This document shows positions 4,745-5,719 of a DNA stretch of 64,000 nucleotides, piece after piece. The number at the start of each line of letters is the position of its first letter. Positions within the stretch are counted from its first letter, which is position 1. The stretch is from Alphaproteobacteria bacterium (lineage in GTDB: Bacteria > Pseudomonadota > Alphaproteobacteria > Rs-D84). Both the position numbers and the translations under genes were made by a program. The notes under the pieces were generated by a model. That model had not been told where the DNA came from, made no database searches, and saw only the letters and a list, made by a program, of their open reading frames with translations. The DNA lies in contig WRHR01000003.1 in the NCBI GenBank assembly GCA_009783145.1, positions 23,019 through 87,018 on the forward strand. The letters are read 5' to 3'.

Positions 4745-5719
4745 TTACATATTCAATATTTCCTGCAGCTCTTTCATATCCTCCGGCAGTTTTGATTTGA
4801 ACTTCATAGGTTCGCCGGTTATTGGGTGGTTCAGCTCCAGGATTTCCGCATGCAGCATTTGACCATGATGAGTTTTTATAAATTCCAAAAGTTCAGGATT
4901 TTTTACGCTGCCCAGGCGCGTTGTGCCGCGGCCATACAGCGGATCGCACACCACCGGAAACCCATGCGCAGACAGATGCACGCGAATCTGATGAGTCCTC
5001 CCCGTCAGCAATGTGCAACGCAATTTTGAAACCCCTGGGTTGCTCCATACTTCCAAAACTTCCGCTTTGGTTTGCGCTTCTTTTCCGCCGCGCTTTAACA
5101 TAGTCATCTTTTGCCGGTTGCGCGCGCTGCGCCCTATATTGCCGCTGATATCCGCCGCGGTCCAATTTGGAATTCCCCAAACAAACGCGATATATTTCCG
5201 CGTCAAATCATGCGCGGAAAAAGTCTTTACCAAGGCGCGCTGCGCTGCATCGGATTTTGCGAAAACCACAACCCCGCTGGTGTCTTTATCAAGGCGATGC
5301 ACCACCCCCGGGCGCATTTCCCCGCCCAGCGCAGACAACGATGTGTGCGCCAAAACCCGCTGGACAAGGGTATCGTCCTCGCGCCCCGCGCCGGGATACA
5401 TTGCAACTCCCCGCGGTTTATTAATTACGATTATGTCGGAATCTTCATGCAAAATGTCTAACGACATTTTACAGTGAACAGAGCATAGAGCACAGAGCAC
5501 AGAGTTTTCTTTCTCTGGAATAATAACTTCTATATTATCTCCAGCCTTTACCTTTTCTGATGACTTGAGTCTGTGCTCTGTGCTCTGTGCTCTGTTCACT
5601 ACGAACTGAAATCCCTGGATTTCAGTTCGTGAAAACTCCGGCATTTTCACTGCCAGAAACTTATCAAGGCGAAGTCCTGCGTCCGCTTCCTCCGCAATAA
5701 AAACGCGCGTCTCACTCAT
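4745..5719 (-). CDS. rluD: 23S rRNA pseudouridine synthase RluD (RluA family)
   Basis: S4 domain plus HRLDKDTSG catalytic motif and GRTHQIRVH; contains palindromic repeat E inside the coding sequence. Confidence 0.88.
   Translation of the reverse strand: MSETRVFIAEEADAGLRLDKFLAVKMPEFSRTEIQGFQFVVNRAQSTEHRLKSSEKVKAGDNIEVIIPEKENSVLCALCSVHCKMSLDILHEDSDIIVINKPRGVAMYPGAGREDDTLVQRVLAHTSLSALGGEMRPGVVHRLDKDTSGVVVFAKSDAAQRALVKTFSAHDLTRKYIAFVWGIPNWTAADISGNIGRSARNRQKMTMLKRGGKEAQTKAEVLEVWSNPGVSKLRCTLLTGRTHQIRVHLSAHGFPVVCDPLYGRGTTRLGSVKNPELLEFIKTHHGQMLHAEILELNHPITGEPMKFKSKLPEDMKELQEILNM
5474..5599. repeat. Family E (cagagca)n palindromic element inside rluD
   Basis: gtgaacagagcatagagcacagagcacagag ... 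ctgtgctctgtgctctgtgctctgttcac, 29-bp arms with one mismatch; an adjacent perfect 13-bp hairpin lies at 5602-5629. Confidence 0.8.

Follow-up and report, generated by a model that had tools for sequence, protein, structure and literature searches.

How do long palindromes come to lie inside a housekeeping gene? The question is raised by rluD, which encodes a 23S rRNA pseudouridine synthase, in a 64,000-nucleotide stretch of contig WRHR01000003.1 from an Alphaproteobacteria bacterium of the order Rs-D84 (the whole stretch is called the window here, and positions are counted on it). An original prediction, made from the sequence alone, placed two palindromes in the S4-domain and linker codons of this gene: an inverted repeat built of (CAGAGCA)n units and an adjoining hairpin. 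We favor the view that the palindrome in rluD is a member of a class of repeats found throughout the genome in certain lineages, and that this class has a DNA-level, largely non-adaptive origin and is filtered by protein constraint; we put the probability of this view at about 0.5.

The host gene is identified by several lines of evidence. Pfam family PF00849 matches residues 95-251 of the product (E = 3e-31), and the Escherichia coli RluD structures 7bl5 and 1v9f match residues 10-322 (E = 8e-45). The sequence VHRLDKDTSG, which holds the HRLD motif, is invariant across the RluD alignment, and orthologues with 66-75% identity are annotated as 23S rRNA pseudouridine 1911/1915/1917 synthases. 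Residues 10-85 align to the S4 domain of E. coli RluD, and an AlphaFold model (mean pLDDT 80.9) shows a helix-helix-strand arrangement there. The Pfam S4 family (PF01479) matches neither the window protein nor the precomputed domains of its orthologues. The PF00849 and structure matches support the placement of the palindromes in the S4-like N-terminal domain and linker of an RluD-type enzyme. As a side observation, the exact window protein occurs on four public contigs, yet the homology search listed no match above 75% identity; the search with MnmE did return a 100% match, and the RluD omission looks like a gap in the index and not like biology.

Both palindromes are present as claimed, and the predicted arm length (29 bp), spacer (about 67 bp) and hairpin stem (13 bp) each fall within 1-2 nt of measurement. 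The arms of the larger repeat are 31 nt each, lie 66 nt apart and are complementary at 30 of 31 positions; Tandem Repeats Finder reports both as period-7 arrays (CAGAGCA / TGCTCTG). In the AlphaFold model, the residues of arm 1 form a beta-hairpin (strands at residues 38-43 and 46-50, pLDDT about 67), whereas arm 2, which sits in the linker between the S4 and catalytic domains, is disordered (pLDDT below 50 at residues 72-80). The adjoining hairpin has a perfect 14-bp stem, and a third, small hairpin overlaps it by 2 nt. A very stable structure within the coding region of the mRNA had been foreseen, and the predicted fold agrees: minus-strand RNA of 5455-5650 folds at -90.2 kcal/mol, compared to -43.4 +/- 3.9 for 200 dinucleotide shuffles (z = -12.1), and none of the 200 folds as stably. 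Folded as DNA, the same segment gives -53.1 against -16.8 in shuffles. Chance as the origin of the palindromes is ruled out by the shuffles. Assembly artefact is ruled out as well, because two independent public assemblies are 100% identical over the rluD palindromes. Contigs L116 (ENA) and L117 (JGI) are 100% identical to the window over 4,975 and 3,320 nt, four arrays included.

The DNA between the arms belongs to the gene itself. Identity of the window protein to its orthologues is 0.71 in the upstream flank, 0.07 in arm 1, 0.51 in the spacer, 0.12 in arm 2 and 0.76 in the downstream flank; the residues encoded by the arms are not conserved in relatives, and conservation of these residues in RluD proteins of relatives, which would have told against the original prediction, is thus not seen. 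The spacer aligns to all orthologues without gaps and includes the invariant residues K52 and S54 and the near-invariant V65 and P68. It is native S4-core coding sequence. A foreign S4 cassette in this position is ruled out, since the spacer aligns to all orthologues at about the divergence of the remaining protein.

The arms have added little to the length of the protein. The segment between the SRxEIQ and LDILxED motifs is 51 aa in the window protein, while the mode among orthologues is 44-47 aa, a net gain of about 4-7 aa, though the arms encode about 21 aa. Some repeat-bearing orthologues gain no length at all (segment of 46-48 aa), and across repeat-bearing RluD proteins, arms that encode 17-21 aa lengthen the protein by a net 0-9 aa. 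Taken with the non-conserved arm residues, these lengths indicate that the arms replaced variable sequence flanking a conserved core, and the earlier suggestion of replacement rather than pure insertion stands. The 14-bp hairpin is unique to the window among 53 orthologues; the same 45 nt in the 52 others has a maximum stem of 3-7 bp. This hairpin has one arm in codons of the conserved SR[ST]EIQ motif, its other arm occupies variable codons (K to G, x to Q, V/I to F), and both arms show some base differences from orthologues.

Six other orthologues carry a DNA-confirmed inverted repeat at exactly these two rluD sites, with unrelated arms and gaps of 62-85 nt. These have (GTGAAGT)n arms with a gap of 68-80 nt (L066 / P0011), ACTCGTT-type arms of 26 nt, perfect, with a gap of 69 nt (L064 / P0005), perfect arms of 52-55 nt with a nested hairpin resembling repetitive extragenic palindromic (REP) sequences and a gap of 68-74 nt (L067 / P0021), (GGAAGAT)n arms with a gap of 82-85 nt (L068 / P0033), (CAGGTGA)n arms with a gap of 62 nt (L111 / P0017), and 26-nt arms with a gap of 69 nt (L112 / P0041). 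A back-translation test, which gives the longest inverted repeat that an orthologue's peptide could encode, adds P0097, P0029, P0074 and P0030 (23-26 nt against a background of 9-18 nt). Each of the seven rluD genes with a repeat has its spacer in coding orientation. A catalytic-domain tree shows the taxa with repeats in a patchy distribution, and arms differ between sister taxa. No inverted repeat is found in rluD of 46 orthologues (44 from reference genomes plus L109 and L110). Arm complementarity among the repeats ranges from 100% down to about 81%, a continuum suggesting that arms arise perfect and then decay. Elsewhere in rluD, the KFPLEIL codons at the junction of the S4 and catalytic domains hold a perfect 10-11-bp hairpin (GCAAAATTTCC nnn GGAAATTTTGC) in two separate lineages, L064 (1519-1543) and L111, and not in the window.

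A second gene repeats the pattern. The conserved NKxD core of mnmE lies between inverted arms in four genomes, and each genome has its own arm pair: (CGAAACG)n in the window (Table 1), (CAAAGTG)n in L114, REP-like GGTGTTCCCCTCCTGTGGAGGGGTG in L113 and TAATTGCCCCCTTTGGGGGGCT in L115. Identity to orthologues is 14-21% for the arm residues and 59% for the spacer. In fabG, a shorter inverted repeat beside an unpaired array brackets the beta2 strand of the Rossmann fold (Table 1).

Whole-element insertion also occurs in this genome and looks different. A mobile, nested palindromic element (GGTTCCCCTCCTGTGGAGGGGTG ... CGGGGTGGTT ... AACCACCCCG ... CCCCTCCACAGGAGGGGAAC) lies in frame within the TrmE_N domain of mnmE and adds about 25 aa, and the sister species shares this insertion site. 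Conservation is higher in the arms of the element than in the protein around them, and its spacer columns are 76% gaps in orthologues. This copy (24040-24215) is a genuine insertion and resembles the Rickettsia palindromic elements (RPE) or REPINs (REP doublets forming hairpins).

The bracketed cores share an unusual base composition. The GC content at third codon positions (GC3) is 0.27 in the rluD spacer and 0.53 in the gene, and 0.28 in the mnmE spacer (23204-23255) and 0.59 in that gene; each spacer is the minimum of its gene, and among 13,070 windows the two fall within the lowest 0.7% and 1.6%. The difference in GC3 between core and rest is -0.23 in repeat-rich genomes versus -0.08 (Mann-Whitney p = 4e-4). 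Long intergenic spacers are AT-rich too (GC 0.22-0.38 compared to 0.48 for the window), and AT-richness is all that the long spacers have in common, as no shared motif or internal hairpin was found in them. Loops of low GC3 are compatible with single-strand exposure or a need to melt, and other causes are possible.

The rluD repeat is one of many in the window. At a score of at least 14 there are 24 inverted-repeat loci, compared to 0-1 in ten dinucleotide shuffles, and 13 loci score at least 18, compared to 0. The arms are tandem heptamers or octamers in 11 of the 18 repeats scoring at least 16. At least ten unit families are present, including AAAGAAT, CGAAACG, ATTTACG, ATGGCAA, NAACTGA, AATTAGC and AGAGTAAG, and spacers form two classes, of 8-17 nt and 45-123 nt. 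About 14 arrays are paired and 5-7 are unpaired; unpaired arrays are found in tsaE, lpxK and a lipoprotein signal peptide. Most copies are intergenic, between genes in every relative orientation, and intragenic copies lie in rluD, mnmE (twice) and fabG (Table 1). The original prediction raised the possibility of other copies of the rluD array. An exact second copy is absent from the 64 kb, but a variant that differs by one base per unit, (AAGAGCA)n, is present at 2892-2928. Rfam has no family matching the rluD repeat, and generic miRNA-precursor hairpin models reach 29 bits against a gathering score of 95. Classical intrinsic terminators were considered and rejected: the canonical ones stand apart from the repeats (e.g., 30738-30780 and 33404-33440), and a consensus scan caught one heptamer hairpin, weakly.

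Table 1. Repeats and associated features of the window, in order of position; coordinates in other genomes are marked by contig.
Feature	Position	Strand	Description
rluD	4745-5719	minus	RluD-type 23S rRNA pseudouridine synthase, 324 aa, host of the palindromes; open reading frame and homology
rluD arm 2	5473-5503	minus	AGTGAACAGAGCATAGAGCACAGAGCACAGA; downstream in gene sense; reverse complement of arm 1 with one mismatch; residues 73-83, SVLCALCSVHC
rluD spacer	5504-5569	minus	66 nt; S4-core codons LKSSEKVKAGDNIEVIIPEKEN, residues 51-72; ortholog alignment
rluD arm 1	5570-5600	minus	TCTGTGCTCTGTGCTCTGTGCTCTGTTCACT; upstream in gene sense; (CAGAGCA)n array after AGTGAA; residues 40-50, VVNRAQSTEHR
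14-bp hairpin	5601-5630	minus	perfect, 2-nt loop, adjoins the rluD repeat; encodes RTEIQGFQF; arms ACGAACTGAAATCC (5601-5614) / GGATTTCAGTTCGT (5617-5630)
Third small hairpin	5629-5650	minus	7 Watson-Crick pairs and one G·U (7-8 bp); conserved VKMPEFS codons
(AAAGAAT)n inverted repeat	6145-6270		36-nt arms; 54-nt spacer with ribosome-binding site and start codon of ORF 5712-6191; one arm encodes the signal peptide of that ORF, the other overlaps the stop codon of ORF 6265-6744
Tandem paralogues	6760-8085, 8274-9524, 9718-11160	minus	three genes, 416-480 aa
Octamer composite repeats	8148-8242, 9573-9704, 33439-33511, 47298-47382		(AGAGTAAG)n arrays and small GC-rich hairpin GCCGGCGAAGCCGGC
Mobile palindromic element	15105-15295, 24040-24215 (mnmE); L066 16150-16360; L115 22-133		38-nt arms in the mnmE copy; homologous internal sequence
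(CGAAACG)n inverted repeat in mnmE	23174-23285		perfect 30-nt arms; bracket 52 nt, conserved G4 motif strand NEIIVINKCDLL
(ATTTACG)n hairpin	29108-29165		short-loop class, loop AGGGAGTC; homologous to 52376-52456, loop included
(ATGGCAA)n inverted repeat	31677-31783		between divergent genes; 31-nt arm recurs exactly at 48002-48032 in fabG
(NAACTGA)n hairpin	36005-36075		loop 1-8 nt; same unit family at 57137-57202 and L066 6014-6073
tRNA genes	41358-41429, 41553-41623	plus	sole Rfam matches at gathering score in the window
(CGAAACG)n inverted repeat	46501-46683		123-nt AT-rich spacer; upstream of gyrB
Unpaired (ATGGCAA)n array in fabG	48002-48034	minus	EMANGKCKMANV
Inverted repeat in fabG	48035-48049 / 48086-48100	minus	15-nt arms; brackets Rossmann beta2 strand GQGATVIITGRDA
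(AATTAGC)n hairpin	49406-49474		17-nt loop
(AATTAGC)n inverted repeat	50576-50735		80-nt spacer; between type II secretion T2SS-E-like and T2SS-F-like genes
(ATTTACG)n hairpin	52376-52456		short-loop class, loop GGGGAGTC
(NAACTGA)n hairpin	57137-57202		9-10-nt loop

Some members of the family stand in notable places. The arrays at 2892-2928 and 6144-6180 encode signal-peptide hydrophobic cores; that of a Peripla_BP_6 lipoprotein reads FALCSLLFALC and that of a secreted protein FILYSLFFILF. The L066 orthologues of both genes have arrays in the same place made of different units (15111-15146 and 9452-9483). Repeat arms at 31763-31791 and 36064-36092 (plus strand) supply -35-like hexamers 17 nt from a TATAAT box; the -35-like TTGCCA lies within (CATTTGC)n upstream of divergent plus-strand genes, and arrays may double as promoter elements. 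Several of the octamer composite repeats lie between tandem pilin-like genes. The three tandem paralogues beside rluD have a prepilin-like hydrophobic N-terminus and no Pfam match, two of them start with MKRKNKYLRSE, and their synteny with rluD is kept in L066, L109 and L110. At the end of the window (62035-63737, minus strand), a "Beta protein" (PF14350) gene adjoins an ImmA/IrrE-type Peptidase_M78 gene, with neighboring open reading frames (ORFs) that match no family, and this region may belong to a mobile or defence island.

Candidatus Enterousia belongs to the order Rs-D84, whose members have reduced genomes (PMC12306168), and the RluD orthologues come from uncultured gut Alphaproteobacteria related to it. 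Within this group the repeats follow lineage. Counting inverted repeats that score at least 16, the density is 0.28 per kb in the window, 0.41 per kb in the syntenic relative L066 and 0.19 per kb in L109 / L110. The five nearest repeat-free relatives have 0 in 41 kb, Enterousia loci have 1 in 305 kb, and outgroups have 1 in 130 kb. For the 44 repeat-free orthologues taken from reference genomes, the genome-wide phenomenon is likewise lacking. Nearly every intergenic gap of L066 that is syntenic with the window bears such a repeat, and the units mostly differ. Short perfect hairpins (stems of at least 8 bp) occur at 3.2 times the shuffled expectation in the window and at about 2 times in repeat-free relatives, a modest difference suggesting that the lineage effect lies mainly in the long repeats.

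The repeats also bear marks of how they are made and filtered. Mismatches between arms (one L064 tally left out) comprise 11 that are G·U-compatible on the transcript, 20 that are so on the antisense strand only, and 42 of transversion type. The lack of a G·U bias on the transcript points to constraint at the DNA level rather than the RNA level. Because 7 and 3 are coprime, the three frames of a heptamer array encode one and the same cyclic heptapeptide, and about 50% of heptamers are stop-free on both strands. Where the unit has a stop on the sense strand (GTGAAGT, CAGGTGA), the upstream arm is interrupted and the complementary arm is perfect, which is direct evidence of a protein-level filter. 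Arrays are also dispersed as copies. The exact 31-nt (ATGGCAA)n array, with the same ATGTAAA variant unit, occurs at 31684-31714 (plus strand, intergenic) and in fabG on the minus strand, and related in-frame arrays lie in tsaE and lpxK (33740-33770 and 56475-56503; the tsaE copy has 3 mismatches). The hairpins at 29108 and 52376 have their loop in common. At the arm boundaries, neither target-site duplications nor common termini were seen.

A single template-switching event is known to be able to produce a perfect hairpin, and the process also homogenises arms and operates in coding DNA (PMC8794818, PMC5941160, PMC8604942). The rluD repeat has the corresponding form, with a reverse-complement copy within about 100 nt, near-perfect arms and little change in length. 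A preference for 7-nt units in bacteria is on record (Mrazek, 2007, as cited in PMC4679880), and protection from deletion has been argued for the coding palindromes of Nematomorpha (PMC6649704). We infer template switching as the mirroring step, protection from deletion as the reason for bracketing, and a non-adaptive character. Arrays of 7-nt (sometimes 8-nt) units would arise and homogenise through replication slippage and would spread between loci by copying. Intramolecular template switching (quasi-palindrome "correction") would then mirror an array tens of bases away, overwriting resident bases with the reverse complement of the nearby arm and inserting no foreign DNA. Protein selection would keep intragenic arms only where they are stop-free and fall in variable surface loops or linkers; survival in such places alone would explain why arms bracket a conserved core and why they recur at the same two sites. 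An essential core in the loop would make deletion of the hairpin lethal, and copies would persist, decay by point mutation and be renewed. Deletions that cannot be survived would likewise explain why it is conserved cores, start codons and promoter regions that repeats of the long-spacer class bracket. The 14-bp hairpin may be the product of the same process on native codons, one arm being the conserved SRTEIQ codons and the other rewritten to match.

The consequences for the gene are probably incidental: single-stranded DNA prone to form hairpins, an mRNA stem of about -90 kcal/mol that the ribosome has to unwind, and about 21 lineage-specific residues. With the arms modelled at the tip of a beta-hairpin and in a disordered linker, RluD is probably otherwise intact.

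Several points weigh against this explanation. Template switching alone explains neither the near-universal 7-nt arrays nor their recurrence at distant loci, and the exact dispersed copies point to some copy-paste mechanism. REP-like conserved arms around native cores, as in L113 and L115, could suit dedicated insertion better than local mirroring, and a specific enzyme or element that was gained or lost would also account for the patchy occurrence in close lineages. The low GC3 of the loops has other possible causes, and repeat-free orthologues show a weaker version of it. A role of the repeats in mRNA stability, processing or translation may exist. Finally, the search turned up no ancestor without repeats that would be close enough for the event to be reconstructed; protein identity to the nearest relatives is about 75%, and a metagenome scan added none closer.

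The main rival is a dedicated mobile element, which we regard as doubtful but as the best of the alternatives. Foldback- or MITE-like units (miniature inverted-repeat transposable elements) with heptamer arms would be placed as an inverted pair around a 45-135-nt target by an enzyme, possibly a transposase, a RAYT-like single-stranded DNA enzyme or a reverse transcriptase, and the rluD copy would be one such insertion. Such an element would account for arrays dispersed as exact copies down to the identical variant unit, for short-loop hairpins that share arms and loop between loci, and for an NAACTGA unit family common to two species. The lineage distribution is all-or-none, as expected for presence or absence of a machine, and pairing far exceeds the expectation for independent insertions. 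A true mobile palindromic element exists in the same genomes, and its REP-like ends bracket the mnmE NKxD core in L113. However, five Pfam scans of about 49 window ORFs found no transposase, no RAYT (IS200/IS605-like Y1 transposase) and no reverse transcriptase, and the arms have neither flanking target-site duplications nor conserved termini. So many unit families within 64 kb are not what a sequence-specific enzyme would have as substrates, the replacements leave length nearly unchanged, and the 14-bp hairpin is made of native codons. We know of no transposition chemistry that sets two inverted ends around pre-existing DNA.

A bolder form of the idea, which we hold to be a little less probable again, is a "bracketing" repeat system. 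A dedicated activity in some Rs-D84 lineages would install inverted heptamer arrays or REP-like hairpins 45-135 nt apart around pre-existing DNA; it could be a novel enzyme, a polymerase directed by a small template, or a reaction resembling single-stranded DNA transposition. If real, it would amount to DNA mobility of a new kind or to programmed marking of the genome, and not to a passive by-product of mutation.

Selection for the structure itself is unlikely and ranks below both of these. Here the stem would be kept for rluD or its operon as a site for RNase III or other processing, an mRNA stabiliser, a translational pause for folding of the S4 domain, or a DNA-level signal, and the differing arms of different species would amount to wholesale covariation. 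Stem position is indeed kept while sequence differs in two genes, the classic signature of structural constraint, and the extreme stability of the fold and the several perfect or nearly perfect arms agree with it, but the stem is absent from the 46 repeat-free orthologues, sister lineages included, and arms grade from perfect to decayed (81-100%). Most short-loop members lie between tandem genes, like REP-type mRNA stabilisers. Unrelated genes and intergenic regions in all orientations share the architecture, and this speaks against a role specific to one gene. The mismatches have no transcript G·U bias (11 against 20 antisense), and Rfam gives only generic miRNA-hairpin matches far below threshold.

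Phase variation, whether by heptamer copy number switching the frame as in a contingency locus or by inversion of the enclosed segment, is very improbable: a 7-nt unit does shift the reading frame, arrays do lie in signal-peptide codons of a lipoprotein and a secreted protein, recalling Opa-type coding repeats, and inverted repeats do flank ribosome-binding-site or promoter regions at 6145-6270 and 31677-31783, but rluD and mnmE are housekeeping genes, three assemblies of the strain, 100% identical over 3.3-5 kb with four arrays, show no copy-number difference, the Pfam scans found no recombinase gene among the window ORFs, spacers of 0-135 nt are, to our knowledge, too short for known invertases, and an inverted spacer would destroy the conserved S4 core.

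If the description given here holds, gut Alphaproteobacteria with reduced genomes are a natural experiment on the load of secondary structure in coding DNA. Repeats enter housekeeping genes repeatedly at the same pairs of permissive loops, and turnover between sister species is complete while the conserved core stays. Comparison of repeat-rich with repeat-free sister genomes makes the cause of the bacterial preference for 7-nt units directly testable. The arms also have practical effects, as lineage-specific peptides and strong hairpins can mislead alignment, domain detection (the S4 domain was missed by Pfam) and covariation-based searches for RNA structure. In the literature searched we found no description of this combination of genome-wide inverted heptamer arrays, bracketed conserved protein cores and unrelated arms at orthologous sites; for heptamer-array inverted repeats in bacteria, the search returned reports of direct repeats only.

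Comparison with known systems places the rluD repeat among several of them. RPE, attributed to Ogata et al. in 2000, reportedly lie in frame in housekeeping genes at surface-exposed, non-conserved positions, and are said to be conserved units of 100-150 bp inserted whole, adding 30-50 residues. Like RPE and in-frame MITEs, the rluD repeat is palindromic, in frame, stop-free, at a non-conserved surface position and in a reduced alphaproteobacterial genome. Unlike them, it has a native, ungapped spacer, a net gain of about 4-7 aa and arms that are unrelated between species, and no dispersed conserved copy of (CAGAGCA)n occurs in the 64 kb searched.

REP sequences and REPINs (Bertels and Rainey, 2011, PMC3116915) also consist of two inverted short repeats with a spacer of tens of bases, form long hairpins and are abundant between genes. 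They are extragenic, conserved including the spacer and tied to RAYT, whereas the repeats described here have diverse arms, unrelated native spacers and intragenic copies. Heptanucleotide repeats, such as the short tandemly repeated repetitive (STRR) sequences of cyanobacteria, small dispersed repeats and the TAACTGA repeats of Beggiatoaceae, cyanobacteria and Bacteroidetes, share the preference for 7 nt and the dispersed arrays of 3-6 units, often by start codons (PMC4679880), and the NAACTGA family of the window nearly matches TAACTGA. Those repeats are direct (169 direct sets against one indirect in that report), whereas here most are inverted pairs, some of which bracket coding cores.

Template-switch repeats (PMC8794818, PMC5941160, PMC8604942, PMC7202029) resemble the rluD repeat in that a nearby reverse-complement copy is made in one event, resident bases are replaced, stems are perfected and coding DNA is affected. 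The events described are mostly short, sparse stems, in contrast to the tandem-heptamer arms of 25-55 nt found here at 0.2-0.4 per kb in certain lineages. The coding palindromes of Nematomorpha (2019, PMC6649704) are likewise long, near-perfect inverted repeats in functional genes with no evident function. They are gained and lost dynamically between species, template switching or arm conversion has been proposed for them, and their deletion would destroy the gene. Their arms encode conserved protein and hold no tandem arrays, whereas in rluD identity to orthologues is 7-12% for the arm residues, and it is the loop that holds the conserved part; here, moreover, the setting is a bacterial chromosome, and intragenic copies are the minority of a mostly intergenic family. 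If the description given here holds, the repeats of these bacteria would parallel the Nematomorpha palindromes on the bacterial side, in many independent replicates, and would form a data set for models of template switching and palindrome maintenance.

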